From positions 90,200 through 154,199 of IMG/VR virus record IMGVR_UViG_3300045988_110030: a stretch of DNA of 64,000 nt. One strand, given 5' to 3'. The notes under the pieces were generated by a model, which saw only the letters and a list, made by a program, of their open reading frames with translations, was not told where the DNA came from and did no database searches. This DNA comes from a virus. A program made the translations under genes and the position numbers. Shown here piece by piece: positions 1,906 through 64,000 of the stretch; the stretch's first letter is position 1; the number at the start of each line of letters is the position of its first letter.

Positions 1906-2079
1906 ACCTATCTCCCTTCAGTCGATAGGTTCAGTCGTTTTTAAATATTATAAGTTTTTTCGCATCGTTCCCTTCGGTCACGATACTCAATCTTTTAACA
2001 CAATTAGGCAAACAATACAATAGACGAAAAAAGTAATTTGTCAATCCGTTCACTCACTTAACTCCCTTCGGTCGTTAAG
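1906..2079. repeat. Three paralogous stem-loops (1906-1930, 1964-1984, 2057-2079). Each has a different 5-6-bp stem but the same 11-nt loop, TCCCTTC(A/G)GTC.
   Basis: Hairpin 1 is acctat-cTCCCTTCAGTCg-ataggt. Hairpin 2 is atcgt-TCCCTTCGGTC-acgat. Hairpin 3 is cttaac-TCCCTTCGGTC-gttaag. The stems covary while the loop is conserved, and all lie inside a 650-bp non-coding region. Confidence 0.6.
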
Positions 2080-2290
2080 TTCATTCACTGCAAACAATTA
2101 TATGAATAAATGGTAAAGTATATAAAATAATATAAATAATATAATGAGTAAGATCATTAAAAATGGTCTTAATATTAAGGAAAACGGAGACTATTTATAG
2201 GCGTAGTTTTAATTCAAGATTTGTTGTCCCACTCCTGACGGTCAGACGGTTACGTTTCGAGCCGTTCTTTTGTCTCTTATCTAAACCGTC

Positions 2291-2338
2291 ATAAAATAAA
2301 AAACCTTGTATCCTATTTCTCTCAAACCGGATACAAGG
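2291..2338 (-). terminator. Strong intrinsic terminator on the minus strand. A perfect 10-bp stem (ccttgtatcc / ggatacaagg) with a 15-nt loop is followed, on the minus strand, by TTTTTTTATTTTAT.
   Basis: Directly read. The stem spans 2304-2313 and 2329-2338, and the A-run at 2291-2303 on the plus strand equals a T-run on the minus strand. No annotated minus-strand gene lies upstream of it. Confidence 0.5.
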
Positions 2339-3421
2339 CCGTGCATTTTCTTATTTGAACATATGATGAAAAATCATATCTTTGCACTAAAGAACATAAT
2401 TATGGAGACAAAGTTAATCGAAATAATAGATCCTCACAAGTTACACGACGAACTCTTTAAGAAAGAGCAAGTCTCTCCGATAGAAGTTATCTACAATAGT
2501 TTCAGTAATTTAGGGTACAATGTGGTACGCCGCCCAGCTGGTCAATGTTTAGGAAATTTGAGATATTTTAACCTGTTTTACGATAAGAATACTCATCATT
2601 TTTATCAGAAGGATAAGAAGTTGAGATATTTTAGTAATTTTCTGATATCCGATTATTGGAAAGATAGGGTGAGGTGTTTTATAGTTTGGAATTTTGGTTT
2701 TGGGAGATTCTTCCCGTACAATGACTTCATAGAGGCTATGGTCTATGACTATCTCCGATATGGGAGGAAGTCAGTTCCTTATCTTAAGAGTGTGCAAGAA
2801 GCTGAAGAAAAGTGTGTAAGGTTCTACATTAGATCTCAAATAGATATGCTTCGTAAGGAAGGATATGCTGCATACCGGGCTAAGTTCAAGGAAGAATGTC
2901 CTCAGTATTTTATCGGAGACGATAGGACGGTGTTCAGATGTCTTGACAGCTCTTTAAAAAGAGAAGAGAAGATTGCCGCATGCGTAGCTCACAAAAGAGC
3001 TTTAAAAGAGGTGGTTATAACTTCTTTTATTAACCATCTCAAGAAACATCCTACCACCTTGTATTCCTGGTTTTCATCAGAGGTAGACAGCGAAGGGAAG
3101 AACAGGCTTTGTTTATCTGATAAGGCTGTTTCTTATTTAAACAAAAGATTGGTTCGCAATGGGTTAAAGGTTCTTTCAGCATCATATCTTTTTAGACTAT
3201 TTAGGAAAATGGTCAAGAATTTGTTTGGCTCCAATGTTAGGTCGTTCTTGAATGGCTGTCTTATGTCTGTTTCAACAGAAGAGGTTTTAACCAAGTCTAT
3301 AAAGAAAATAGTTTCCAAGACGGTATTGTTTTTATACAAGAGAGTACTCAAGGCTTATCGCAGGGCATACGGACTCAAGTACGATCCCGATTCAGGAGGT
3401 TTGTCCGCTATACATACCTGA
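2306..3421 (+). CDS. Hypothetical protein. The true start is possibly an internal Met (MMKNH… at ~2363), because the first codons overlap the hairpin at 2304-2338.
   Basis: A 371-aa uninterrupted ORF in an AT-rich genome. No recognisable domain. The basic, aromatic-rich composition could partly be AT bias. Confidence 0.45.
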   Translation: MYPISLKPDTRPCIFLFEHMMKNHIFALKNIIMETKLIEIIDPHKLHDELFKKEQVSPIEVIYNSFSNLGYNVVRRPAGQCLGNLRYFNLFYDKNTHHFYQKDKKLRYFSNFLISDYWKDRVRCFIVWNFGFGRFFPYNDFIEAMVYDYLRYGRKSVPYLKSVQEAEEKCVRFYIRSQIDMLRKEGYAAYRAKFKEECPQYFIGDDRTVFRCLDSSLKREEKIAACVAHKRALKEVVITSFINHLKKHPTTLYSWFSSEVDSEGKNRLCLSDKAVSYLNKRLVRNGLKVLSASYLFRLFRKMVKNLFGSNVRSFLNGCLMSVSTEEVLTKSIKKIVSKTVLFLYKRVLKAYRRAYGLKYDPDSGGLSAIHT

Positions 3422-3467
3422 TTTTTAAACCTATCCCATAACGTTGGATTTTCTCGTTTGTTTCTCT

Positions 3468-3475
3468 TATCTTTG
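3468..3475 (+). promoter_or_regulatory. TATCTTTG, matching the Bacteroidetes sigma-A -7 consensus TAnnTTTG, 16 nt upstream of the ATG at 3491.
   Basis: Directly read. The same motif class sits before the ORFs at 16043 (TATATTTG, 16020-16027) and 27714 (TACCTTTG, 27684-27691). Confidence 0.4.
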
Positions 3476-3490
3476 TGAAAAAAGATAAGT

Positions 3491-6322
3491 ATGAAATTAC
3501 GAATCATAAAAAATCGTCCGGTATTCGCTCCTGGTGGTAGTGTTCAGGATAAAAAACAGGATATTAATGTATCCTCTACTCAGCCTATTCTTGATTATGG
3601 AACACCTGTTAATAAATGGGGTAAATCTGATATTCAGAATATATATATGCCTTATGATGTGACTTTAGAAGCAGAGGAGGGGGAGATAAATCCATTTAGC
3701 AATATGCCTACATCTGATCCATTCTTTGAAAATCATGATGCAGGATATGCAGGATATCTTGCTGATAATAGGAGCATGGTTAAAAACGTAGAGAAATCAG
3801 TTGTTAATAATGCAATGAATGTAGGTGGCTCTGATGCTGATTCTTCTAAAGAAAAGCGATCACAAGATGGAAATCCTTTGGATCCTATGACTGCTCCTTA
3901 TTATTCTTCTGATCTTGCTGGTAGGTCCCAGATGTTTGGTGCGAGTTTGGGAAGAATAAGGGCTGGAAACAAAACCGGTGCTAACATAGCGGAGGCGGCT
4001 TTATCCGGTCTTAGTCTTGGGATGGGTCTTACCCGTAATATTATGGGGGCTTCTTCTGAGGCTTATGCCGCCAGTAGAGACGAACAAGCGGCAAGAGAGA
4101 AACTTGCCGAGAATCGCCGTCAGCAGTTTATCCGATGGGAGCGTGAAGGGGGAGGTATTAATCTTGGAAATGGTCAGAGAATAGATACGTCTGATATGAC
4201 AGGGGAATATATTTATCCTCTTCCTAAATCTATGGAGGATAATGCCAATGTTGAGATAGAAAAAGGAGAATATGTTTCGACTCCGGATGATGTTGGCCCT
4301 ATGGAGGCAAAAGGTAGCAGGCATGAAGACGGCGGCACTCCTGTTGATTTACCCGAAGCTCATATTATTTCAGATTACCGTACTATCGATGATGATTTTG
4401 CTTCTTACATAAGGGAAAATTATGGCATTAGAGCTACGGAAAAAGATACGTATGCTACGCTTCTTGATAGGTACAAGAAAAAAATAGGATTGTCTGAAAA
4501 GTATGATGATCAGGAACGTGTTTTCAAGAGGTTGGAAAAGAATAAGGATGTTAAGGATAAAAACACTTCTGAGTTAAATAAGTCCATTCTTTCTAAGTAC
4601 GTAAATGATAATCAAAAGGAAATAGACGAACTTGAGGCGCAATTCAGGTCTTTTGCTGACATCGTTTATAACAAGCAAGAGGAATCCAAGCGCCAAGAAA
4701 AGATAGATGCTTTCTTTAGAGATGGCGGAAAAGTTGATTTAAATGCTGTGAGAAAACAAGCTAAGGCTCTTAACGTATCTGAATCTGATGCTAAAAATTG
4801 GATATATGATGAGTATGTAAAGAGAGTTAGGAAAATGGCTGAAGGCGGTCCTACCAAGGAACAGATAGAGTGGGGTAAGAAAGTACAGCAGCTTTTAATG
4901 AAGCAGTTTGGACGTACTCTTAATATGTCTATAGTAGATGTTGCGGACAGAGAGCAGATTCTTAATCCTGATTCTGGTGTAAATTCTAATCAAAATCTGC
5001 AACATAGAAGTAGTGCCGGTTATGGTAGGGTAAATAACAAGGCTATTTCTAATTTGCTTGATATTAACCGTTGGGCTAATAAATACAATACGGATGGTGA
5101 TTTTAATACAGAAGGATTCCAGACTGGATACAATAGCCAACTAAATAGCCTATGGGCTTTGGCGGAATCAGGTGCTATAGCCAATGCCGAAAAAGCCAAG
5201 AAATTTAGAGACGAATACGGATTTTGGGGAGAAGATGCCGGTAAGTACGACCAAGGAAGTAAATCGGCATATAACTCATTTGCCGTAGATGACAAATTTG
5301 GACAAACTACGGCAACCAGATCATTTTATGGATTGGATGTAGTTACTCCTGAACAAAAGAGATTGTTGAATGAAAAAGGGATAAAGAATTATGTTGACTT
5401 ATTTGGTGATAAATCTGATGCAGCTAAGAAGATTCTGGGTGCCGATTATAATAAGTTTGCTGCTTTAAGAGATAGTGGTTTGATGTCGGAAATGGACTTC
5501 GTATTGGAAGCCGTAAACCCAGCATCAAAACCTATAGAAGCTGAACCTGTAGGAACCGATCCTAAATTTCCCAACCCAGGTTCTCCAGGCAGGATAGAAG
5601 TGAAGAAAGAAAATCCTGTTATTGATACTACTGTAGAAACGGAAGAAAAGGAAGAAGATGATACAAACGGAAGAAAAGGCGTCGGCCCTGCTTTATCAGG
5701 CCCTATATTCCCTGAGATGTTGAGGATGCTTGATACCGGATTAGAGATAGAGGGATTGGAAAGGCATCAGGCTCCGAGAATAGATCCGGTTCTTCAATCT
5801 GCTGATCAGTATATCAACGAGCTCAACCGCGCGACATCGGCTCAGTTGGACACAATAGGTGACGTGCCCGACTCTCAGCGTTCCGCTATTCTGGCTAATA
5901 TGAACGCCATAGCCGGAAGCAATATAGCCAAGTACATTAACGAAGTAAATTTCAATAACGCAAGGCAAATAAACGAAGCTGATAGATTTAACGAAATGGC
6001 TTATGTTCAAACAGATGATAAGAACATAGCGGAAAGGCAACGTTATGAATCCGGATTATTGAAGGCTATGGCTATAAGGGATGAAAATCTTGCTCGTTAT
6101 TATGACAGTATAAACAGCGAGATACAGAATAAGTTTAATGTTAGAACTTCATTGAACACCATAGCTTCCATAGCTCCGAATATGAGAATGCTTCCAAGTG
6201 GTCAAATTATTTACGTTCAAGGTGATCAGGATGTGATGAATATGGGTGATTATTCCACACCTTACTTGAGAAGTTTAAATGAAGAAGATGATGAAACTAA
6301 AAGAAGAAGGAGGACCAAATAG
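3491..6322 (+). CDS. Giant virion/ejection-type protein (943 aa).
   Basis: A long ORF containing low-complexity, coiled-coil and Gly/Ala-rich segments. Its stop (TAG at 6320-6322) shares one nucleotide with the GTG start of the next gene, giving translational coupling. It is the first gene of a four-gene operon of very large proteins that follows the tail lysozyme gene. Confidence 0.7.
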   Translation: MKLRIIKNRPVFAPGGSVQDKKQDINVSSTQPILDYGTPVNKWGKSDIQNIYMPYDVTLEAEEGEINPFSNMPTSDPFFENHDAGYAGYLADNRSMVKNVEKSVVNNAMNVGGSDADSSKEKRSQDGNPLDPMTAPYYSSDLAGRSQMFGASLGRIRAGNKTGANIAEAALSGLSLGMGLTRNIMGASSEAYAASRDEQAAREKLAENRRQQFIRWEREGGGINLGNGQRIDTSDMTGEYIYPLPKSMEDNANVEIEKGEYVSTPDDVGPMEAKGSRHEDGGTPVDLPEAHIISDYRTIDDDFASYIRENYGIRATEKDTYATLLDRYKKKIGLSEKYDDQERVFKRLEKNKDVKDKNTSELNKSILSKYVNDNQKEIDELEAQFRSFADIVYNKQEESKRQEKIDAFFRDGGKVDLNAVRKQAKALNVSESDAKNWIYDEYVKRVRKMAEGGPTKEQIEWGKKVQQLLMKQFGRTLNMSIVDVADREQILNPDSGVNSNQNLQHRSSAGYGRVNNKAISNLLDINRWANKYNTDGDFNTEGFQTGYNSQLNSLWALAESGAIANAEKAKKFRDEYGFWGEDAGKYDQGSKSAYNSFAVDDKFGQTTATRSFYGLDVVTPEQKRLLNEKGIKNYVDLFGDKSDAAKKILGADYNKFAALRDSGLMSEMDFVLEAVNPASKPIEAEPVGTDPKFPNPGSPGRIEVKKENPVIDTTVETEEKEEDDTNGRKGVGPALSGPIFPEMLRMLDTGLEIEGLERHQAPRIDPVLQSADQYINELNRATSAQLDTIGDVPDSQRSAILANMNAIAGSNIAKYINEVNFNNARQINEADRFNEMAYVQTDDKNIAERQRYESGLLKAMAIRDENLARYYDSINSEIQNKFNVRTSLNTIASIAPNMRMLPSGQIIYVQGDQDVMNMGDYSTPYLRSLNEEDDETKRRRRTK

Positions 6323-20014: not shown

Positions 20015-21079
20015 ATGAACTTTGTTACGTGCTTCATGCACGTATGTTTAACAATTAAATACTATAAAATTATGGGTGGTGATAAAATCGTCCTTTTAGA
20101 TGGAGCCGGGGCTAACGGTGGTGGTGCAGCCACTAACGGTCTTCTTTCAATGATTCCCGGCATGTTTGCTAATTTGATAGGTGGTAATAAAATGGATCCG
20201 AATCTGGTGGCGGCTTTGATGAACGGTCGTAACAACCAGGACGGTTTCGGTGGGGCTAACGGTTGGTGGCTCTGGATAATTGTTTTGTTCTGGCTGTGGG
20301 GTGGACGCGGCTTCGGTAACGGTTTTGGAAATGGCGGTGATTGTTGTGCCAATGGTTTGCCGGCTCAGTTGAATAACGATTACGGTCGTGAACTTTTGAT
20401 GCAGGCAATTCAAGGTAATCGTAGCGCCATAGATCAGATTGCTTCTGCTTTGAACTGTTCTACTACTCAACTTCAGAACGCTATCTGCAACGTACAGGGT
20501 GCTATTGATAAAGTAGCTGGTCAGGTAGGTATGACTTCTCAGGCTGTTATCAACGCAGTTCAACAACAAGGTTGTGAAATAGGAAATCAAATCAGCTCTT
20601 GCTGCTGCAATCTGAGTTCGTTGATCAATCAAAGCACTTGCCAGACTCAGGGAATGATTACTCAGCAAGGTTTTGATAACCAGCTTCGCACGTTGGAACA
20701 AACCAATATCTTGCAGAACGGTCTCAACCAAGGTCTGGCTAACAATCGTGAGCAAGCTACAAGCCAATTCAATATCTTGTCTGCGAAACTTGACGCCCAA
20801 ACCGTTATGATCAACGACAAATTCTGTCAGTTGGAAATGAGGGAGATGCAGAACACTATTGCTCAACTTCGTGAAGAAAAAGCGGCTTTGACAGCTTCGG
20901 CATTATCTCAGCAACAAACCCAGAATATCGTTGGTCAATTACGCCCGACGGCCGTCCCGGCCTACCCCTCTTGTTCTCCTTACCAGGCTTATACTTGGGG
21001 ACAGGTATTCGGAGGAGGTTGCTGCAATAACGGATGTGGATGTAACAACGGATGTTGCAATAACAACGCTGCTGTCTGA
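20015..21079 (+). CDS. Highly unusual low-complexity protein. It has a Gly/Asn-rich N-terminus, a Trp-rich transmembrane segment (GWWLWIIVLFWLWGG), GFGNGFGNGG repeats, a long Gln/Asn-rich helical region and a Cys/Asn/Gly C-terminal tail (GGGCCNNGCGCNNGCCNNNAAV).
   Basis: A 354-aa ORF. The start could instead be the internal MGGDK at ~20072. Directly read composition. No recognisable family. Confidence 0.55.
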   Translation: MNFVTCFMHVCLTIKYYKIMGGDKIVLLDGAGANGGGAATNGLLSMIPGMFANLIGGNKMDPNLVAALMNGRNNQDGFGGANGWWLWIIVLFWLWGGRGFGNGFGNGGDCCANGLPAQLNNDYGRELLMQAIQGNRSAIDQIASALNCSTTQLQNAICNVQGAIDKVAGQVGMTSQAVINAVQQQGCEIGNQISSCCCNLSSLINQSTCQTQGMITQQGFDNQLRTLEQTNILQNGLNQGLANNREQATSQFNILSAKLDAQTVMINDKFCQLEMREMQNTIAQLREEKAALTASALSQQQTQNIVGQLRPTAVPAYPSCSPYQAYTWGQVFGGGCCNNGCGCNNGCCNNNAAV

Positions 21080-21102
21080 TTTTATTAAGAGAGGAGGCTA
21101 AT

Positions 21103-21516
21103 ATGGCTTGTGTTTCTAAAATAGGATCGTTGTATGAGATGGTTACGAAGAATGTTATTGTCAGTACGACAAATACAATCTTCGGTATTAACCCACGGGC
21201 TTGGATCGCCCTTCCGTGTGAGGGTCTTATCCTTCTTAAGATAAGGCAAGTAGTCCCCACAGCCGGAAGTGCTCTACCGGTACAGATTGCGGTCCCGGCA
21301 AACAGCACAGTTTCAACAGTAGGAGCCGACACCTGTTGCTCGGTTACGGGAGTGAATGTCGTGAACCCTATTAACGTAGCTGTAACGGGTGCTGCTATGG
21401 TAAATGGCACAGAACGCCTTCTGTACTTCAATAAAGTTCGTGGCGTGTTAAGATTAATGGATTGCTGTGTTCCAGTAGCGGCAGCCCAGGCGTCTGAAGT
21501 TAAAGCAGGTAAATGA
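21103..21516 (+). CDS. Hypothetical protein (137 aa), rich in Val/Ala/Thr with paired cysteines.
   Basis: Preceded by a strong Shine-Dalgarno sequence (GAGAGGAGG, 8 nt upstream of the ATG). Sits in a cluster of co-oriented small genes. Confidence 0.55.
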   Translation: MACVSKIGSLYEMVTKNVIVSTTNTIFGINPRAWIALPCEGLILLKIRQVVPTAGSALPVQIAVPANSTVSTVGADTCCSVTGVNVVNPINVAVTGAAMVNGTERLLYFNKVRGVLRLMDCCVPVAAAQASEVKAGK

Positions 21517-21566
21517 TTTCAGTAGGGTGATGGAGATCATCACCCTATTTTCACCTAAATAATATT

Positions 21567-22061
21567 TTGATCATGTTTTCAGATTTGAAGAAAGGGTTTC
21601 AGGTACATACCCTTGATACTAATACAGTACCTAAATACGAATTGGGAAAGGTAGTAGCCGTATCCGAACCCAGGTATCTTCCTCCTCAGCCGGGTCAGTA
21701 TCAGGCGATGCAGACCCGCGTGGTGGATCTGACGGTAGAGCTCACTGGCGAAACCAAGACCTATACGGTTCCGGAATCCCAGAATGTGGCTAAGGCTATG
21801 GGTATAACATTATCTACCAGCATAGATCCGATTATGAACGAACTGAATGCTATAAAAAACACCAGTCAAGACATAATAAACAGCGTAGATGCCCATCGTG
21901 CCAAGATAGAGGCTTGTGAATCTATATTAGAAGACATCAATCCGGCATTCAAACAAACGAGAGAGCAGGATCGTAAAATAGCTGGTATAGAAAATAAGGT
22001 GAATGACCTTACTGATTCATTCGAAGATTTAAAGAAGTTGATTGTAGAACGTTTGAAATAA
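21567..22061 (+). CDS. Hypothetical coiled-coil protein (164 aa).
   Basis: An ORF with a heptad-like C-terminal half, tightly spaced with its neighbours. Confidence 0.5.
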   Translation: MIMFSDLKKGFQVHTLDTNTVPKYELGKVVAVSEPRYLPPQPGQYQAMQTRVVDLTVELTGETKTYTVPESQNVAKAMGITLSTSIDPIMNELNAIKNTSQDIINSVDAHRAKIEACESILEDINPAFKQTREQDRKIAGIENKVNDLTDSFEDLKKLIVERLK

Positions 22062-22068
22062 GTATAAT

Positions 22069-22440
22069 ATGATAGTATATGATTTAAATTCAGGGCAAAG
22101 AGAATATCCTGGATATGATGAGATAGAAGATAGACGAGGCAGAGGCCGTAGTCGTCGTTCTGATGGGACGTACATGGGTTACGGACATGGATTCCTTCCT
22201 CCTTATGACCATTATGGTATGCATGAAAAAATGAAAGAGATGGAAGAACGCGAAAACGAGTTGGAAGAAAGAGAAAGAAGACTCGAAGAACGCGAACGTC
22301 GTCATGAAATGGAGGACCGGGAATACCGGAGGATGGGTTACGAATCTTACCCGACCGATTATTATGGAGACGACAGATACTACGGTGACGGACCTCAGAT
22401 GCGTAGAGGTCGCGGACGTGGCAGAGGTCGTTCTTATTGA
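22069..22440 (+). CDS. Hypothetical low-complexity protein. It is RG-, Tyr- and ER-rich (RGRGRS…, EERERRLEERERRHEMEDREYRR, C-terminal RGRGRGRGRSY).
   Basis: Directly read. It resembles eukaryote-type RGG/RG nucleic-acid-binding low-complexity regions. Confidence 0.5.
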   Translation: MIVYDLNSGQREYPGYDEIEDRRGRGRSRRSDGTYMGYGHGFLPPYDHYGMHEKMKEMEERENELEERERRLEERERRHEMEDREYRRMGYESYPTDYYGDDRYYGDGPQMRRGRGRGRGRSY

Positions 22441-22533
22441 GGAGCAGACGCAGAGGATCCAGCTTATCAGAAATATGTAGATACTTACGGCTACCATTTT
22501 TCTAATGCTCTCGCTGATGAGGCGGTAAAGAAG

Positions 22534-22827
22534 ATGGTCAACGTCGATGGATCCAAGAGGATCTGGAAGCAGCCGGAAATAAAAGATATTTTTGAAAAGT
22601 GCGGAGCGAAGAAGCCGGATAAAGCGACATGGGGCGATGTCCAATATGTCTTTGCAATGTACTATTCGGATGGTTTTCCGAAGGTCTTCAAATGTGAGAA
22701 CGAGTTGGTGAAAGCTACGTTAATGTATTTGGATGATCCGGATGCTCCCGAAGGAGTAGCCTTTATAAGATGGCTTGCCGTGCAAGATTACCTCGGCGAA
22801 AAAATAAACTGGAAGGATCTGACCTGA
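22534..22827 (+). CDS. Hypothetical protein (97 aa).
   Basis: The ORF ends ~100 nt before a GC-rich hairpin plus T-run at 22930-22985. Confidence 0.4.
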   Translation: MVNVDGSKRIWKQPEIKDIFEKCGAKKPDKATWGDVQYVFAMYYSDGFPKVFKCENELVKATLMYLDDPDAPEGVAFIRWLAVQDYLGEKINWKDLT

Positions 22828-22929
22828 GATCCAGATCCAGGTCCTTCCGGTGGTGCGGGAGCCATAGTGAAAAATATGATTCCCGCATTCCCGTTTTTCC
22901 CGTTTGGAAAAAAAGAATAAAAATGTTAT

Positions 22930-24562
22930 ACCGGTCGGCGGGCAATAGAATACCCGTGGCCGGTTTGTTTCACATAACTTTTTTTGGATATGAATATAGC
23001 ACACGAATCTAAATCGAATAAAACCCCATTGTATTTAATAGGAGAGTTGATTGGCGTACCGAATACGGTTATGGACTCAGCATTGCATGAACTGAAAGAT
23101 AGAATAGACAAAGACCCTAAATGGGTGATTATATACCACTTTACACCAAAAGCGTAAAGTAATACACATTTATACGGAAATTCGTACCGGGTTACACCAA
23201 AACCCTCTACCTTCTGGTAACATCGTTACATCAAAGGATTCTTTTTCCGATTTACGGATGATGTTAAAAGCACCATTGATATCAGCATTAATTGTCTTAC
23301 CAGAAGAGGTTTTAAACAATCCTCGTTTGATCCTTCTTCCTTTGTAGGATTCATGTTTGCAAATCCGTTCATTATCTAAAAAGCTACATTTTGAAGTATA
23401 AGATTCTTCAACGATCTTAACATTAATACCTTCTAATGTAGCTTTATACGATATCATACTGATAAACGAATTAAAAGGAATAGATACAAAGTTCTGATTA
23501 TTACGCTTTCCAATATTGATCTCTTGTTTCCAGTATTTGTTATGACCGATTATGATCGTATTAATACCATTGGAAACTACATGATTAACCAATATTCTAC
23601 TTGCTTTATGCAGATAGTCTTTGATCTTGTTATTCCTTTTGTCGGTTAATGACCTTATTTGTTTTGAAATCTGTTTATTGTCTTTTAACTTAGATTTTAA
23701 GAATGCTAACCTTTTGTTATAATATTGGTTAATAGACTTTAGTGGCCTACCATTGATGATAAAACAAGAACCGGTGTTTGAAACACAAGATGCTAAATTA
23801 TCCAATCCTATGTCGATGCCAAGATAGTTCCCATTATCGGACATAAGATTCTTTTCCTTCTTATTGTAAACTATTTCAAGAACAATATACCCATTCTTAG
23901 GAATGAATCTAAGTTGTTGAATATTTTGCTTGTTAGTTCTTGTTGTAAAGGAAAACTGTTTTGGTAACTTAACAATGCCTTGTTTTATCCATTTTTGAGA
24001 AAAAGCATTTGTTGCAAAAACAGCAGGAAACAAACCACCCTTGTTGAGATACCTTGGCATTCTTACTTCCTCAGAATACTCACCTCTATTCTTTTTATTA
24101 AAGAGATTGAAGAAAGATTTAAAGTTTCTATCAACCATCATCAACACTTGTTGAGCAACCGGTGCTGGTAAAGCACGATAGTCAACATCATTTTCTGTTC
24201 TTAACTTCTTTTCAAGAGAATAGTAGTTTAGGTACTTATACTTTACAGTATTATCATCCTTGTATTGAAAATAATACTGTCTAACAACATATAACCCTTT
24301 ATTGTATAAGTTTTTACACTTATGCAATAGATCATAAAGTTCATTGTAATAAACAGAACTTGGTTTGATCGTATGTTGTTCGACTAATCTCATGACACAA
24401 ATATAGAAATTATTATTTATATATGAAAACAAATTGGCGTATTTGTGGTGTAAAGTTGTATATAATTACCTAAAGATGTTAAAAATTGGCTCGAATCTTT
24501 ACCCAAGATCTGAACCTATTTTTTTTCAATACCGGGCCCGATGCGATTTTAACGTATCGGGT
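22930..24562 (-). mobile_element. IS200/IS605-family tnpB-only (IS1341-like) insertion element. Boundaries are approximate. The tnpB 3'-flanking 150-250 nt (≈22930-23170) would encode the TnpB guide RNA (reRNA/omega-RNA).
   Basis: The tnpB ORF is flanked by GC-rich subterminal hairpins in an AT-rich background. One is 22930-22964 (accggtcggcggg…cccgtggccggt). The other is 24528-24553 (cccgatgcg-attttaa-cgtatcggg followed by TTTTT). There is no TnpA (HuH) ORF. TTCCCG-type short repeats occur at 22880-22915. Confidence 0.55.
23170..24432 (-). CDS. tnpB: TnpB (OrfB) RNA-guided nuclease of the IS200/IS605 family.
   Basis: RuvC-I is YLGIDIGLDNLA. RuvC-II is …TIIIGHNKYWKQEINIGKRNN… with its Glu. 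A zinc finger (CSFLDNERICKHESYKGRRIKRG…) is followed by RuvC-III (INADINGAFNI). The likely true start is the internal MRLVEQ…. Confidence 0.85.
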   Translation of the reverse strand: MFSYINNNFYICVMRLVEQHTIKPSSVYYNELYDLLHKCKNLYNKGLYVVRQYYFQYKDDNTVKYKYLNYYSLEKKLRTENDVDYRALPAPVAQQVLMMVDRNFKSFFNLFNKKNRGEYSEEVRMPRYLNKGGLFPAVFATNAFSQKWIKQGIVKLPKQFSFTTRTNKQNIQQLRFIPKNGYIVLEIVYNKKEKNLMSDNGNYLGIDIGLDNLASCVSNTGSCFIINGRPLKSINQYYNKRLAFLKSKLKDNKQISKQIRSLTDKRNNKIKDYLHKASRILVNHVVSNGINTIIIGHNKYWKQEINIGKRNNQNFVSIPFNSFISMISYKATLEGINVKIVEESYTSKCSFLDNERICKHESYKGRRIKRGLFKTSSGKTINADINGAFNIIRKSEKESFDVTMLPEGRGFWCNPVRISV

Positions 24563-24641
24563 TTTTATTTTAATTCATATTGTTTTATTTTAAATCTAAT
24601 TAATTCATGAATGTCGTACTTTTGTTGAAAAAGTATTCTAT

Positions 24642-24869
24642 ATGGAAAATAAGGAAGATTACGTTGGTTACGAAGATCAAGAACTGTGTAACCGGTATTA
24701 CAAAGAGGCTGAAGCCATGAGGCAAAAGCAGGACTGGTCTCGTCTTAGGGCTGTCCCTGCTCCGGCCAAGGGAACGCCATCGCCCGGCTGGGGACAGCTT
24801 GGACGTGGAAATGATGTCCGTGTTAAGTACGTTAGCATCAATTCAGGATTAGGAGGGGACAGATTATGA
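24642..24869 (+). CDS. Small hypothetical ORF (75 aa) between the two IS-type nuclease genes.
   Basis: ORF only. Could be non-coding. Confidence 0.25.
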   Translation: MENKEDYVGYEDQELCNRYYKEAEAMRQKQDWSRLRAVPAPAKGTPSPGWGQLGRGNDVRVKYVSINSGLGGDRL

Positions 24870-25230
24870 CCGTAGAAGAATTAGCTAATAAAAGATACGG
24901 TGGCGAATTTGTTTTCATAATTGTGAATAATACATAACTCATACAAATCATAACCAATTTGTATTGTATTATGTATAATAGCCAAAAGCTATTCCGATTA
25001 TTAGCCTAAGTGTTGAAACAAACACTACGTTATTTAAGAATAGATAGTTACCTACGGATGTTTGCCCAAGTTCGTAGCTCTAAGGTAAGTGATTAAACAA
25101 TGGTTGTATTCGAGCTATAGTGTTGCTTACTAAAAACCTTAAATAACATTGGCGATGGGTACTAACAGAGTTTTACTCTGACTTATGTTGAATAAACATT
25201 AAAAACGTTTGTAGATATGGTGTACGTACA
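24870..25230 (+). ncRNA. Putative IscB omega-RNA (guide plus scaffold). It lies immediately upstream of, and overlaps, the iscB start.
   Basis: A 350-nt ORF-free region with nested GC-containing stems (for example ctacgga…ttcgtag and gttacc…ggtaag). It is located exactly where IscB omega-RNAs are encoded. Boundaries are not determinable by eye. Confidence 0.45.
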
Positions 25231-26437
25231 AGACATAAATGGTAAACCTATGATGCCTACAACAAGGCATGGTAAGGTTAGGAGACTGCTCAAATCAAAC
25301 AAAGCAGTCGTTGTAAACCTATGTCCGTTTACCATCCGATTGACGTACATATCCGATAGTTACAAACAAGAAATCGTGTTAGGCGTTGATGCTGGGACTA
25401 AACATGTTGGTTTATCAGCTACGACGAAAAGCAAAGAACTTTACAGCAGTGAAGTGATCCTTAGAAATGATATCGTAGATCTTTTGTCTACCAGAAGAGA
25501 GCTACGGAAAGCAAGACGGAACAGGTTAAGATATAGAAAACCTCGTTTTAATAATAGAGTAAAAAACAAGCGTCCAGGATGGATAGCACCTTCGGTGCGG
25601 TACAAAGTAGACGCCCATATTCGTGTTATTGACAATGTATGTTCTATATTACCAATATCTCGTATTGTTATTGAAGTAGCTCAATTTGATACTCAAAAGA
25701 TTAACAATCCTAATATATCAGGTAAGGAATATCAGGAAGGAAACAAACTTGGTTTTTGGAACGTAAGGGAGTATGTTTTAGCAAGGGATGGGCATAAATG
25801 TCAGTATTGTAAAGGAAAATCGAAATCCAAAATCCTTAATGTCCATCACATCGAATCCCGAAAAACGGGAGGTGATTCCCCTTCTAATCTTATTACCTTA
25901 TGTGAAACTTGTCATAAAGAATACCATAAAGGTAATATAGATTTAAAGATCAAACGGGGATCGTCGCTTCGCGACGCAGCCGTAATGGGAATTATGAAAT
26001 GGAGGTTGTATGAAGAGTTAAAATCCAGATACGACAGAGTTTTTATGACGTTTGGTTACATTACGAAACATAATCGGATTAAATACGGTATTGAAAAATC
26101 CCATACATCCGACGCGTTTGTCATTTCTATGAACATTAATGCGAAACGGATCGAACGTCAATATTTAAAACGTTTAATTCGTAGACATAACAGGCAAATA
26201 CATAAAATGAAAATTTTAAAAGGAGGAAAGAAGAAAAACAATCAAGCTCCTTTTGAGGTTTTCGGTTTTAGATTGTTTGATAAAGTGTTGTATAACAATG
26301 AAATATTCTTTGTTTATGGAAGGAGAAAATCGGGGAGTTTCAACATCAGGGATTTCAACGGAGAAAATTCAAAAGATGTTTCACGCAAAAAGTTTAAACT
26401 CATTAGAGGGAAGAGGCATCCGATTATATTAAAGTAA
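25217..26437 (+). CDS. iscB: IscB (OMEGA system RNA-guided nuclease, the Cas9 ancestor), with PLMP, RuvC-I, an Arg-rich bridge helix, RuvC-II, HNH and RuvC-III.
   Basis: The N-terminus MVYVQDINGKPMMPTTRHGKVRRLLK is the PLMP domain. RuvC-I is IVLGVDAGTKHVGLSA. The bridge helix is RRELRKARRNRLRYRKPRFNNR. RuvC-II is IVIEVAQFD. HNH is HKCQYCKGKS…NVHHIESRKTGGDSPSNLITLCETCHKEYH. RuvC-III is HTSDAFVISMN. At 406 aa it is a typical IscB length. Confidence 0.85.
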   Translation: MVYVQDINGKPMMPTTRHGKVRRLLKSNKAVVVNLCPFTIRLTYISDSYKQEIVLGVDAGTKHVGLSATTKSKELYSSEVILRNDIVDLLSTRRELRKARRNRLRYRKPRFNNRVKNKRPGWIAPSVRYKVDAHIRVIDNVCSILPISRIVIEVAQFDTQKINNPNISGKEYQEGNKLGFWNVREYVLARDGHKCQYCKGKSKSKILNVHHIESRKTGGDSPSNLITLCETCHKEYHKGNIDLKIKRGSSLRDAAVMGIMKWRLYEELKSRYDRVFMTFGYITKHNRIKYGIEKSHTSDAFVISMNINAKRIERQYLKRLIRRHNRQIHKMKILKGGKKKNNQAPFEVFGFRLFDKVLYNNEIFFVYGRRKSGSFNIRDFNGENSKDVSRKKFKLIRGKRHPIILK

Positions 26438-26474
26438 ATGAATAGATTTAATAAATTTAATAGAAAAACGTATC

Positions 26475-26780
26475 ATGTATAATAAAGAAATAGTAATATG
26501 CGCGGCTATATGGGTACAGGACAACAAGAAGCGTCCCCATCAGCCCACCAACATACCATCCGGTACCGTGTTCTGTGGACTAAGACATTGTTCTATCATT
26601 TCTCAGTTTGTAGCTTATGGTATTGCTCATAAGAACCGTAGTGTGCAAGGATTTTTAACAAGCAAGAATCGGTTTTTAACAAGAGAGGAGGCATCTGAAC
26701 TTGTTAAGAACAATAATCAGGAGATGATAGTAGATAGGAATGCTATTAGAGAACAATTGTATTCAGAAGATTTATATTGA
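26475..26780 (+). CDS. Hypothetical protein (101 aa).
   Basis: ORF, co-oriented and tightly spaced with its neighbours. Confidence 0.4.
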   Translation: MYNKEIVICAAIWVQDNKKRPHQPTNIPSGTVFCGLRHCSIISQFVAYGIAHKNRSVQGFLTSKNRFLTREEASELVKNNNQEMIVDRNAIREQLYSEDLY

Positions 26781-26796
26781 CTAAAAACAAAATAAT

Positions 26797-27147
26797 ATGG
26801 GATTTATAATCAAGAAGTCAATCACTTATAATATGATGGACGGCAATCAGTTAGAGTATGTATTTGACAACATTAATTTAGATCATATCACATTTAAAGG
26901 TAATGGTAAAGAATCTTTTTCATTTAACAGAGCCCTTGTTGAAAATTTAATTGAGACATTTGATACTATGCAGGATATATACTCTGATAATTACGGAATT
27001 AAGGTTTATACCGGTAATTGCATAATTCAACTGAATGTAAATCCAAAGAACTTAAGTGAATCCTTTTTTGACGTATATGATAGAGATGGGATGAAATTGA
27101 TATATAGCATACAAAATAGTGTCTTGAAAGAAATGTTTATAATATGA
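26797..27147 (+). CDS. Hypothetical protein (116 aa).
   Basis: ORF. Confidence 0.4.
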   Translation: MGFIIKKSITYNMMDGNQLEYVFDNINLDHITFKGNGKESFSFNRALVENLIETFDTMQDIYSDNYGIKVYTGNCIIQLNVNPKNLSESFFDVYDRDGMKLIYSIQNSVLKEMFII

Positions 27148-42652: not shown

Positions 42653-43672
42653 TCATCGTTTTATCTTTTTAGACGGATCCCAATCCGAAGAGAAAGGGCA
42701 TTCGTTTTTGTTATGTAATCCAAAGTCACAATAGTAACACAGTGCTGACGGGCAGGGTAGCTTGTTTTGCGGAACAGGCTGGCTTAGGGTGGCACGCCGC
42801 TTGCTATACCTGGCTCCTTCTGCTCCCTGGATGTATGCCTGAAATGTTTTTACACTATTATCTTCAAAATCATACATTTTAGACAAAGTGTCATTTAGCA
42901 TCTCTATAGATTTTGTTTTACGTTCCTCATCCACCTTAACCTTTTGGTATTGTCTGGTCCTGGTAAAGAAATAGATGTTCATATCTGGAAGAACTCCACC
43001 ATATTTTCTATAGATGTAAAATGAATATATAGGATGCTGTAAATTCGTTTCCAACTTCTTAGAATCAAAAACCTTATTACCTGATTTCCAATCTATGACA
43101 TAATGGTGAACTACGTTCTTGCTTTTTATAGCCAGATGAAGGTCTACCGATCCTACTATGTACACATGAGTATGAATTACTCCATTTATGTTAACAGGCT
43201 TAGGAAGACGGTACGGCAGCACAAAATCTTCTTCGACTCCAACTATAGCGCCGTGTCTGATAAGTTTCTCGCAGGGATTAAGATCACTATCAGCTATCAT
43301 AAACCTATTGCCGTCTTTTTTGAACAGATCCACAATCCAAGCAAGAAGCTCTCCAGATTGCTTCATGGCTATCATCATATTTTCCGGTGATTGCCAAGGT
43401 ATGTCTTCTTGGTAAGCATAGTAACTTATAGCTTCCCCCAGGTCTTTGCCAGAAGGCTGTCTTCCGTTCTTGAAGAAGTATTCCAGTGTCTTATGAATAA
43501 CCGTACCATAAGACGTAGCTTCTTGTTTTTCCGTAGACCTTTTGCCCTCCACGTAAGTTTTATACCATTTCATTGGACAAGTAAGAAACGTATCTATCTG
43601 GGAATAAGATATGGCAAGACGTTTCACACCATTAAACTCCTTATATAGCAAATGCGTTTCCGGGACCATCAT
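42653..43672 (-). CDS. RecB/Cas4-family PD-(D/E)XK nuclease with a C-terminal Cys cluster.
   Basis: The N-terminal motif is YSQIDTFLTCPMKWY. The DxK motif is VIDWKSG. The C-terminal cysteines (CPSALCYYC…ECP) resemble the Fe-S-binding tail of Cas4/AddB-type nucleases. Confidence 0.65.
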   Translation of the reverse strand: MMVPETHLLYKEFNGVKRLAISYSQIDTFLTCPMKWYKTYVEGKRSTEKQEATSYGTVIHKTLEYFFKNGRQPSGKDLGEAISYYAYQEDIPWQSPENMMIAMKQSGELLAWIVDLFKKDGNRFMIADSDLNPCEKLIRHGAIVGVEEDFVLPYRLPKPVNINGVIHTHVYIVGSVDLHLAIKSKNVVHHYVIDWKSGNKVFDSKKLETNLQHPIYSFYIYRKYGGVLPDMNIYFFTRTRQYQKVKVDEERKTKSIEMLNDTLSKMYDFEDNSVKTFQAYIQGAEGARYSKRRATLSQPVPQNKLPCPSALCYYCDFGLHNKNECPFSSDWDPSKKIKR

Positions 43673-53987: not shown

Positions 53988-54447
53988 TCTTCTTCTCGCC
54001 TAATTTTTCAGCTCCCTTCTGAAGATCGTATTTGAATACGTCAATGATCTTCGTTTCAGCAATAGCTTCGCAATTCCAGTCGCCCAACGTACCCTGCATG
54101 CCTTTAGTCAACACAGCTTCGGCATCCTTGGGATTGCCGGCCTGGACATACATATAGCATGGTGTTTTCTTTTCTTTACCTTTCTTTTCATCCAGTGTAA
54201 TGTAATTCACCTTACACTTATACCAGTACTCAGCCTCTCCGTTGAAGAAGATTTCCGACACTTTAATAGGATTAATTTTTACAACCTCGAAAGAATTGTA
54301 CAAATCCTTGAAGATCTCCAACGATCTTGATTCTGCCTCTGTGTAAGACAAGGCATCCACTAAATACTTTTCAGTTACCTTCTTTTTTTTGCCGTTCTCG
54401 ATATTGTCAATCTCGGCTTTTACCGTAATTTCAAACCAGCGATTCAT
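53977..54447 (-). CDS. Hypothetical protein (156 aa).
   Basis: ORF. Confidence 0.45.
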   Translation of the reverse strand: MNRWFEITVKAEIDNIENGKKKKVTEKYLVDALSYTEAESRSLEIFKDLYNSFEVVKINPIKVSEIFFNGEAEYWYKCKVNYITLDEKKGKEKKTPCYMYVQAGNPKDAEAVLTKGMQGTLGDWNCEAIAETKIIDVFKYDLQKGAEKLGEKKSEE

Positions 54448-54458
54448 GTTATTAATAT

Positions 54459-54710
54459 TTAATTAGTTGACTTCTTTTTATCTATATTATTTTTAAGTCT
54501 GGCAGAGCACCACTGCAAAACATCCATCATCATCATCTCATTATTAGATAAGATGCCTTTTATAACTAAGGCCAATTGATGCTGTGACATTCGTTGGCTC
54601 ATATCAAACCTTCTTTCCTCTTCATTTACTATCGTAGCCACGAAATACTTACACCCCTCCAAATGCGTCAGGGCTTCAGTCATAGCTTCTTTTATTTCCT
54701 TTTCTTCCAT
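54459..54710 (-). CDS. Hypothetical protein (83 aa).
   Basis: ORF. Confidence 0.35.
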   Translation of the reverse strand: MEEKEIKEAMTEALTHLEGCKYFVATIVNEEERRFDMSQRMSQHQLALVIKGILSNNEMMMMDVLQWCSARLKNNIDKKKSTN

Positions 54711-63423: not shown

Positions 63424-64000
63424 ATGATTTCATACAAATACAACATATACCATTCCAGGAAAACGAAGTATCTGGAAAAGATGCTTCGTGAATGTTGTTT
63501 TGTATGGAATCATGCGTTAGCTCTACAACGTAGATACTATAAACTATTTGGAAAATATATCTCAGTTGGTAAGATGAAGAAGTATTTTGCCAAAAGAATT
63601 AAAAGAAATCTTCTTCATTCTCAAACAACACAAGAAATACTTGAACGTCTTGATGAATCTTATAATCGTTTCTTTAAGAAGTTAGCTAAACGACCTCCTA
63701 AGTTTAAATCACCGGAGAAATTCAACTCTTTTGTTTTCAAACAAGGTGGGTTTACCCTAAATGGGAATTGTCTAACAATTAACAAAGGAAACAAACGATT
63801 TAGATTCTCATACAGTAGAGGCTACGAAGGTAATGTTAAACAAATTAGAATAGTTAGAGAAACCTGTTCACGTTTTAGTTTGATTGTAGTTACAGATCAT
63901 AATCCTATAAGCTCTTATAGAAAGACACATGATGGTGCATCTATAGGATTGGATTTTGGGCTGAAAACTTATCTAACTAAAAGTGATGGTAGCAAAATCG
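63424..64000 (+). CDS. tnpB: Second TnpB (IS200/IS605 OrfB) gene, 5' portion, running off the window end. This is another IS-type insertion.
   Basis: Translated by hand from the ATG at 63424. It is absent from the ORF track because it has no stop in the window. The N-terminus is MISYKYNIYHSRKTKYLEKMLRECCFVWNHALALQRRYYKLFGKYIS…. The RuvC-I motif is …GASIGLDFGLKTYLTKSDGSKI. Confidence 0.75.
   Translation, partial: MISYKYNIYHSRKTKYLEKMLRECCFVWNHALALQRRYYKLFGKYISVGKMKKYFAKRIKRNLLHSQTTQEILERLDESYNRFFKKLAKRPPKFKSPEKFNSFVFKQGGFTLNGNCLTINKGNKRFRFSYSRGYEGNVKQIRIVRETCSRFSLIVVTDHNPISSYRKTHDGASIGLDFGLKTYLTKSDGSKI

Follow-up and report, generated by a model that had tools for sequence, protein, structure and literature searches.

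An IscB–omega-RNA element of a human-gut phage as a candidate RNA-guided homing nuclease

The iscB gene, its omega-RNA and the limits of the element

The 64,000-nucleotide stretch of viral DNA analysed here (positions 90,200 to 154,199 of the IMG/VR virus record IMGVR_UViG_3300045988_110030; hereafter, the window) carries a gene for the RNA-guided nuclease IscB at 25217-26437 (+ strand), together with DNA for its omega-RNA upstream on the same strand. Based on alignment to the phage csAssE-Sib (OR575929) and to 79 IMG/VR loci, the element, which holds the omega-RNA and iscB alone, is delimited at 24917-26474; all functional statements on it made below rest on comparative sequence evidence. The open reading frame (ORF) of iscB is present as described in a first-pass annotation of this DNA, and encodes 406 aa. 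This protein matched the NCBIfam model NF040563 ('RNA-guided endonuclease IscB'; guided_IscB, an equivalog) at 357.9 bits, for a cut-off of 175, and the Pfam domains RRXRR (residues 2-175, 3e-59) and HNH (residues 195-238, 1e-10), and it could be aligned to solved IscB structures, including OgeuIscB (7UTN/7XHT), with E-values of about 1e-44 to 2e-44. The domain order is a PLMP-type N-terminus (PMMP, within the motif GKPMMPT), RuvC-I (D58), an arginine-rich bridge helix (RRELRKARRNRLRYRKPRFNNR), RuvC-II (E153), HNH, RuvC-III (H296/D299) and a C-terminal domain, and there is no REC lobe. The HNH domain, located between RuvC-II and RuvC-III, has a Cys4 zinc site (C195/C198/C229/C232) in addition to H210/H211, N224 and H233/H237. 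All of the catalytic positions (D58, E153, H210/H211, N224, H233/H237 and H296/D299) are retained in the alignment to OgeuIscB, in which D58 is equivalent to D61, E153 to E193, and H296/D299 to H340/D343. The full IscB domain order and intact catalytic complement proposed by the first-pass annotation are, at the level of sequence comparison, confirmed: a careful alignment revealed no catalytic substitution, and the catalytic and zinc-binding residues were invariant in 74 of 74 full-length phage copies. The ratio of nonsynonymous to synonymous substitution rates (dN/dS) of phage copies relative to the window copy was 0.07-0.20, indicating that the phage iscB family is under purifying selection. 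The C-terminal region of about 70 aa (about residues 335-406), which is conserved among phage and bacterial homologues, is presumed to be a putative domain interacting with the target-adjacent motif (TAM). Residues ~335-406 could be aligned neither by sequence nor by profile to the TAM-interacting domain of solved IscBs, and for the C-terminal 106 aa no sequence match was found in the PDB, even at E = 10 or by profile.

The only Rfam family matched across the window was HEARO (RF02033), an RNA now known as the IscB omega-RNA. Its full-length match (24975-25166, +) scored 103.1 bits (gathering score, 83; E = 4e-20). A group I intron, an IStron or any other structured RNA in the gap was rejected, as a permissive Rfam scan of 22500-27000 gave HEARO alone. 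The 5' RNA end at 24975 returned by cmscan, which used a local alternative, was dropped for 24917 on two grounds. The seven starting bases of the scaffold pair with the seven bases immediately 5' of the invariant TAGCCTAAG, and this stem, P1 (5' strand 24917-24923, 3' strand 24995-25001), covaries across element types (ATAATCG/CGATTAT, ATATCCG/CGGATAT and ATAATCA/TGATTAT); moreover, copies located at differing sites converge exactly at ATAAT(C/T)G… ('type A', the type of the window) or at ATATCCG… ('type B'). Because of this covariation and the point at which the copies diverge, the scaffold start is placed at 24917 and the guide segment at 24901-24916 (+; TGGCGAATTTGTTTTC), the last 16 nt before element copies from different sites converge; the 16-nt length and the cut position were assumed by analogy with OgeuIscB. 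The guide is phage DNA directly outside the omega-RNA end of the element, inside a truncated phage gene. The HEARO-class scaffold runs from 24917 to about 25200 (+), as judged from the Rfam match, covariation and copy-divergence point, and comprises, all on the + strand, P1, a 'type A' hairpin module within P1 (about 24930-24976), a core containing a long-range GCC/GGC pairing (25002-25166) and two 3' hairpins (25166-25180 and 25185-25199) outside the Rfam model. An RNAalifold consensus of 28 omega-RNAs (phage, orphan and from bacterial homologues) contained 37 pairs, and compensatory double changes were seen in 20 of these; alignment A2 shows covariation in the 3' hairpin 25166-25180 as well (GAG/CTC, GGA/TCC and GGG/CCC), and the folding z-score of the region was -3.1. 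Comparative evidence of this kind, together with the covariance-model match, confirms that the upstream ORF-free stretch encodes a bona fide, structurally conserved omega-RNA of IscB. The first-pass annotation had placed such an RNA within 24870-25216; the RNA is there, and its coordinates are now refined to the guide and scaffold given above.

The window is 91-98% identical (insertions excluded) to csAssE-Sib, a 151-kb phage of the human gut (Caudoviricetes). The carrier, a relative of csAssE-Sib, is a tailed phage of the human gut with a genome of roughly 150 kb, and the element lies in a region of accessory genes. Window positions 21000-23122 are shared with 2001-4130 of the OR575929 locus (L001) and 24471-24918 with L001 4132-4579; between them, 23123-24470 has no OR575929 counterpart and is a clean TnpB insertion, and the IscB block (24919-26471) stands in place of L001 4580-5825. 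This missing segment contains the remainder of a 71-aa gene, a DUF2829 gene and one further gene. What is left of the 71-aa gene is a stump of 17 codons (24866-24916, +), and homology to OR575929 stops at 24918. The other end of the element is an AT-rich 37-nt tail (26438-26474, +; ATGAATAGATTTAATAAATTTAATAGAAAAACGTATC), directly followed by the ATG (26475-26477, +) at which the next phage gene (26475-26780) starts and which is also the putative target/TAM. The element is co-oriented with the surrounding phage genes and lies directly 5' of this ATG, and homologous tails follow iscB at three insertion sites (the window type, L020 and L022), each directly before an ATG. Subterminal hairpins are present at the omega-RNA end (24930-24976), and none is evident in the 37-nt tail. 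Since the element begins with AT, a breakpoint ambiguity of 2 bp (AT) is possible at both junctions. The comparison with related phages lacking the insertion, which the first-pass annotation had suggested, thus yielded boundaries as well as empty sites.

An IMG/VR protein search gave at least 329 confirmed relatives of this IscB on phage contigs. The 79 loci fetched encode proteins with 79-95% amino-acid identity, mostly on contigs of 80-160 kb, and 80 of the 329 loci were examined. Because of these numbers, and because the phage family phrog_119, labelled merely 'HNH endonuclease', matches the protein at 5e-64, the earlier view that an IscB in a phage is in itself noteworthy was overstated. 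The relatives occupy many genomic sites, and several contigs have two copies. The nearest bacterial homologues are 43-59% identical, with the exception of two probably phage-derived contigs, and relatives of 79-95% identity were found on phage contigs only. A 20-kb contig assigned to 'Vibrio olivae' (NZ_JBHMEP010000019.1; L081) has an IscB that is 86% identical, phage-like neighbours and the right flank of the gut-phage L032 group, and is probably phage DNA or assembly contamination rather than a Vibrio element; a 6.9-kb contig in a Phocaeicola metagenome-assembled genome (L082) looks similar.

As the first-pass annotation had noticed, no HUH transposase is visible: a Pfam scan of 60 window ORFs (ORFs above ~500 aa lay outside the scan) found neither a Y1/HUH nor a serine transposase, and a crude HUH motif screen of the ORFs surrounding 10 bacterial homologues, which is a weak test, flagged no TnpA. 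Because it has no Y1 TnpA, the element is non-autonomous at best, which it has in common with about 98% of iscB loci (Meers et al., bioRxiv 10.1101/2023.03.14.532601). Some copies are decaying; L012 is without the whole omega-RNA (window-equivalent 24852-25177; L012 about 5957-5962), L034 is without the 5' end of iscB, and L021, L044, L061 and L069 are truncated by premature stops. Extra HEARO omega-RNAs were recognized at L020 3994-4232, L009 1113-1357, L038 9920-10160 and L042 608-853. That of L020 is not followed by an iscB gene, and this orphan could guide in trans. In L038, a second full element, oriented like the first, is located ~2.7 kb downstream of it.

Junctions, guide targets and neighbouring elements in related phages

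At 14 distinct left junctions, the 16-nt guide flank is directly followed by ATG in unoccupied genomes, and at the right ends, the tail always lies directly before the ATG of a co-oriented phage gene (at least 12 different sites). Precise simple insertions were recognized in L042, compared with the empty L071, and in L032, compared with the empty L027/L029; the empty sites read flank|ATG and consist of the left flank plus the right flank, with neither terminal inverted repeats nor target duplication. The junction ATGs are mostly start codons; some are internal, including the window's own, which in relatives is an internal Met codon of the 71-aa gene, and one (L048 type, window 54626-54641, -) is out of frame. 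Since internal and out-of-frame ATGs are used too, the trinucleotide itself, and not a translation-start context, seems to be recognised. The regional ATG frequency is 0.031, and the probability that nine of nine nested junctions (see below) fall at ATG by chance is about 3e-14. The paper describing HEARO is said to have noted insertion at ATGA/GTGA. In the geometry of IscB, the TAM is the motif 3' of the protospacer on the non-target strand. In IS200/IS605 elements, TnpA and IscB share this motif, the TAM being the transposase target (Meers et al., bioRxiv 10.1101/2023.03.14.532601). From these two relations we infer that ATG (CAT on the other strand) is the target/TAM of this IscB element family. 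The first-pass suggestion that the phage is an insertion hotspot was partly right, in that the element family lands at many ATG sites. In L032-L038, the tail ends in 16-17 nt (TAACGCAAAAAAGGAA) that are almost a second copy of the left flank/guide (GTAACGCAAAAAGGAA), and an almost-target is thus left at the right junction, a feature seen at no other site.

When IMG/VR was searched for exact copies of the guide followed by AT, at least 117 contigs were obtained. Among the matches listed, the guide plus ATG is intact and unoccupied in 114 of the 117, and the guide site is occupied in L128 (a near-twin of the window, type A) and L207 (type B). The intact target of the OR575929 type reads TGGCGAATTTGTTTTC ATGTTTGG, and the window's own junction reads …TTTTC ATAATTG; the guide 16-mer is single in the window and is followed there by ATA, the scaffold start. 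Because its own guide site is followed by ATA and that of relatives by ATG, the ribonucleoprotein should spare its own genome and cut most relatives. This distribution, obtained by the search for guide targets with an adjacent motif that the first-pass annotation had proposed, fits the role in homing or inter-phage competition that it had raised. The window also keeps protospacers with ATG for the guides of other variants: an exact one for the L017 type (24850-24865, +), an exact one for the L020-type guide at an empty insertion site (42657-42672, -), and one with a single mismatch for the L040/L048-type guide (54626-54641, -), where the L040-type site is empty. By these matches the window genome would be both armed and targetable. 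In a single case, L007, the window protospacer is followed by AAG and not ATG (Met to Lys) at the position equivalent to 24917; this variant may represent a TAM escape. A simple, undeleted insertion at the window's left junction was looked for among the 117 contigs and none was found, both occupied ones having the standard right junction.

About 35 IMG/VR contigs have the window's right junction (…AAAAACGTATC|ATGTATAAT), and among them at least nine different ATG-adjacent left junctions were found. With L003 as the ruler, eight of these are located 0, 14, 118, 378, 501, 1301, 1598 and 1649 nt upstream of the element; the 1598-nt junction is that of the window, L019, L128 and L207, and the 1649-nt junction that of L017 and L231. 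The ninth, in L021, could be placed on the OR575929 ruler only, 1087 nt upstream, between the L010 and window positions. The 0-nt variant is also without one gene present in OR575929. A second nested series of the same logic exists at a site that is empty in the window (54447-54710, -). Each nested left junction would correspond to a guide-side deletion that gave the element a new guide, and the geometry suggests that larger deletions remove the sites targeted by smaller-deletion variants while still cutting those variants. Three origins can be considered: (a) a second insertion at a nearby ATG and then recombination between the two direct copies, for which tandem copies exist, for example in L038; (b) TnpA-type intramolecular strand transfer from the right end to a downstream CAT| site; and (c) random deletions retained only where a TAM lies beside the new protospacer, an origin that is the least likely because both endpoints must be exact.

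Ragged derivatives, which are not ATG-adjacent, have lost 4, 4, 6 and 10 nt at the TAM-proximal guide end or have substitutions of the last guide base; ragged left junctions were seen in L005, L015, L060 and L072, and in L004, L006 and L021 (near locus position 5700). They possibly derive from leaky self-cutting at the scaffold start, ATA. The window element is itself a mosaic: 24917-25010 is 97-99% identical to 'type A', 25651-25900 is 97-100% like L013, and 26050-26474 is 94-100% identical to the 'type B' lineage but only 55-78% to 'type A'; because of this mosaic, recombination between element copies seems to be frequent. At the identical left junction GTTTTC|, a type B module (ATATCCG…) exists in L019/L207 and a type A module (ATAATTG…) in the window/L128; a simple exchange of the two would have no homology to use on the left side.

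The clean insertion upstream of the IscB element is a TnpB element of 1348 bp (23123-24470, -), whose gene (23170-24432, -) matched NF040570 at 186.8 bits, and a further TnpB begins at 63424; both had been noticed in the first-pass annotation. The latter is an N-terminal half cut by the window end (63424-64000, +; NF040570 at 86.8 bits, model positions 1-216; phrog_506 at 7e-33) and has no significant similarity to the former. The 1348-bp element has terminal inverted repeats of ~24 bp (GGTAATTATATACAACTTTACACC … GGTGTAAAGTGGTATATAATCACC on the minus strand), which are unusual for IS200/IS605; the minus-strand sequence of the empty site is CATCTTTA-T-ATTTAGGG, and one T is gone from the occupied allele. 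Its guide is predicted to be ATTTAGGGTCTTTGTC, with a TTTA-type TAM. The element is present in the window, L002, L014 and L019 (four of about 20 relatives with IscB at the site), whereas at least 17 relatives have a cleanly empty site without it; L128, the closest relative (98% identical), has the window's IscB junction and no TnpB. Between the TnpB element end and iscB are a terminator-like hairpin (24534-24564, +; 12 pairs followed by a T-run) and a conserved 75-aa phage gene (24642-24869, +), the TnpB element being situated between an upstream gene and this terminator. Because the TnpB element is polymorphic, L128 has the IscB junction without it, and a conserved gene and terminator-like hairpin lie between them, the two elements are independent insertions. 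The first-pass picture of two OMEGA systems placed back-to-back across a shared 785-bp gap is therefore not supported, as the gap holds the TnpB end, the hairpin, the 75-aa gene and the gene stump. A shared divergent tnpB/iscB promoter was rejected for the same gene and hairpin, and a scan for sigma-70-type promoters was at background (11 versus 8.8 expected).

Possible roles of the element

The reading that we favour, with a probability of roughly 0.6, is that a TnpA-less OMEGA element of IS200/IS605 type acts as an RNA-guided homing nuclease between co-infecting phages. Read-through transcription from the phage gene upstream would supply the omega-RNA, and IscB with this RNA would cut double-stranded DNA in which the protospacer is followed by a 3' ATG TAM. 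On co-infection with a relative having the intact site, the rival genome would be cut and then repaired from the IscB-bearing genome, a repair that would copy the element and the adjacent 1.25-kb deletion into the rival. Such a process would be an RNA-guided counterpart of the homing known from free-standing homing endonucleases in T-even phages. New ATG sites would be reached by rare transposition, presumably with a Y1 TnpA acting in trans on CAT on the other strand, the target being the same as the TAM. The window's left junction would be one of at least nine nested guide-side deletions, each of which would have provided the element with a new guide and eliminated the sites that less-deleted variants target. 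The mosaic elements, and junctions shared across otherwise different genomes, are compatible with such biased inheritance and do not constitute proof of it.

Several observations weigh against this reading. The ATG TAM was deduced from the junctions alone, ATG is short for a TAM or a TnpA target, and the scaffold start, ATA, differs from it by one base; the start-codon bias could in part come from which insertions are tolerated, yet internal and out-of-frame ATGs are also used. The presumed C-terminal TAM-interacting domain matched nothing in the PDB by sequence or profile, TnpA was found neither in the window (60 ORFs) nor beside the bacterial homologues examined, and some element copies (L012, L021, L044, L061 and L069) are decaying. 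In addition, large-deletion variants are rare at the site, being two to three of about 117 among the matches listed; under a strong drive they would be expected to have spread, if they are neither recent nor costly.

A stronger form of the homing reading, in which the element is a self-retargeting RNA-guided homing drive with ATG (usually a start codon) as its TAM, can be put forward only tentatively and is, in our judgement, doubtful. If it were true, each guide-side deletion ending exactly at another ATG would create a guide that cuts all less-deleted relatives, and would drop the sites that those relatives target. A one-way 'deletion ratchet' would result, in which accessory genes upstream of the element are eroded and the variable regions of gut phage genomes are shaped; the ragged -4, -6 and -10 junctions and the swaps of 5' RNA modules could be added by leaky self-cutting (ATA versus ATG).

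The element might instead be an ordinary bacterial IS200/IS605 passenger that moves by a host-encoded TnpA, with IscB only re-cutting the donor joint restoratively and no homing between phages, but we regard this as unlikely. Precise, scar-free insertion beside a fixed short motif is indeed the signature of IS200/IS605, iscB elements as a rule lack TnpA and are mobilised in trans (Meers et al., bioRxiv 10.1101/2023.03.14.532601), and nothing in the data shows cleavage of a rival genome. However, close relatives (79-95%) were found on phage contigs only, the nearest bacterial homologues being at 43-59% apart from the two probably phage-derived contigs; no TnpA was found among the 60 window ORFs, and restorative homing requires excision, for which a TnpA would have to act during the short cycle of the phage. 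Frequent exchange between phage genomes is also indicated by the mosaic elements and the nested deletions that reset the guide.

Still less probable is that IscB has been domesticated as a weapon or regulator benefiting the phage, by excluding competitors or processing its own or host DNA, and is not selfish. The strong purifying selection and wide retention across the phage family would agree with this, as would a guide matching rival phages and not self and the orphan omega-RNA of L020 (3994-4232), which, possibly like the second HEARO copies in L009 and L042, could guide in trans. However, presence, position and copy number vary between near-identical phages, some close relatives being entirely without the element (OR575929, for example, at this locus), and many copies are decaying; no guide match outside the phage family was found, none having been searched for. 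The guide is whatever DNA flanks the element, as in any element of IS200/IS605 type, and the domesticated guide nuclease raised in the first-pass annotation therefore has no specific support. A TldR-like repressor is not indicated, because the catalytic residues are intact. That the element is an inert relic, once mobile and now fixed and non-functional in the window genome, is very improbable: it has no TnpA, on its left it is flanked by a deletion junction within a broken gene and its 5' module is recombinant, but the ORF is intact with all catalytic residues and low dN/dS, the omega-RNA is complete with P1 preserved, and the guide has a perfect ATG-flanked target in more than 110 relatives.

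IscB-like proteins in phages are already known to be common, and co-orientation and the absence of tnpA have been published. Our literature search gave nothing specific on the carrier phage or on homing by phage IscB, and we found no report of a start-codon/ATG target, of nested guide-resetting deletions or of population evidence for inter-phage targeting. The present data provide in-silico population evidence that OMEGA nucleases could be RNA-guided homing endonucleases between phages, and a natural series of junction variants, in which deletion reprograms the guide, makes the role of TnpA-less IscB elements testable in phage. At 406 aa, the protein is also a compact IscB, whose putative 3-nt TAM (ATG) may be very permissive, and part of the variation in gene content within an abundant human-gut phage family is explained by the element.

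Comparison with known systems

The phage IscB has the same domain order and catalytic residues as OgeuIscB (7UTN/7XHT) and as GstIscB of Geobacillus stearothermophilus. Its 406 aa compare with 496 aa in OgeuIscB: it is without the 110-144 insertion, and its shorter C-terminal domain could not be aligned. As in the IscB-omega-RNA systems of IS200/IS605, the gene is directly preceded, on its own strand, by a HEARO-class RNA, the flank outside the element serves as guide, no tnpA is present, and the putative TAM is opposite the guide side. Co-orientation with the upstream gene is likewise shared, being a feature of IscB elements in general, and only about 1.5% of iscB genes are near tnpA (Meers et al., bioRxiv 10.1101/2023.03.14.532601). 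The same authors identify the omega-RNA end as the transposon right end, with the guide directly outside, and the phage element agrees with this arrangement. It differs in its carrier, a lytic-type gut phage family rather than a bacterial chromosome; in its putative TAM, ATG, compared with the NWRRNA given for OgeuIscB (PMC12660989); and in the nested, guide-resetting deletions on its guide side. The neighbouring TnpBs (23123-24470, and from 63424 onward) are also of OMEGA class, have no TnpA and are polymorphic, precise insertions in the phage family. Unlike IscB, they belong to an unrelated protein family (a single RuvC; Cas12 ancestor), and their guide is at the 3' end.

Among phage systems, the closest parallel would be SegF, SegB and Mob of T-even phages ('intronless homing' or localized marker exclusion), in which the nuclease gene also lies between phage genes and the target is intact in relatives and disrupted in the carrier (PMC13565253). 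The expected outcome, that a co-infecting relative is cut and flanking markers are co-converted, would be the same as with the T-even enzymes (PMC13565253); a 2026 review treats 'non-restorative transposon homing' in phages as theoretical (PMC13565253). The T-even homing endonucleases recognize their targets by protein, whereas the phage IscB would use a 16-nt RNA guide and a short motif. Its specificity would therefore be set by the insertion junction, so that, unlike in the T-even enzymes, a change of junction would retarget the nuclease.

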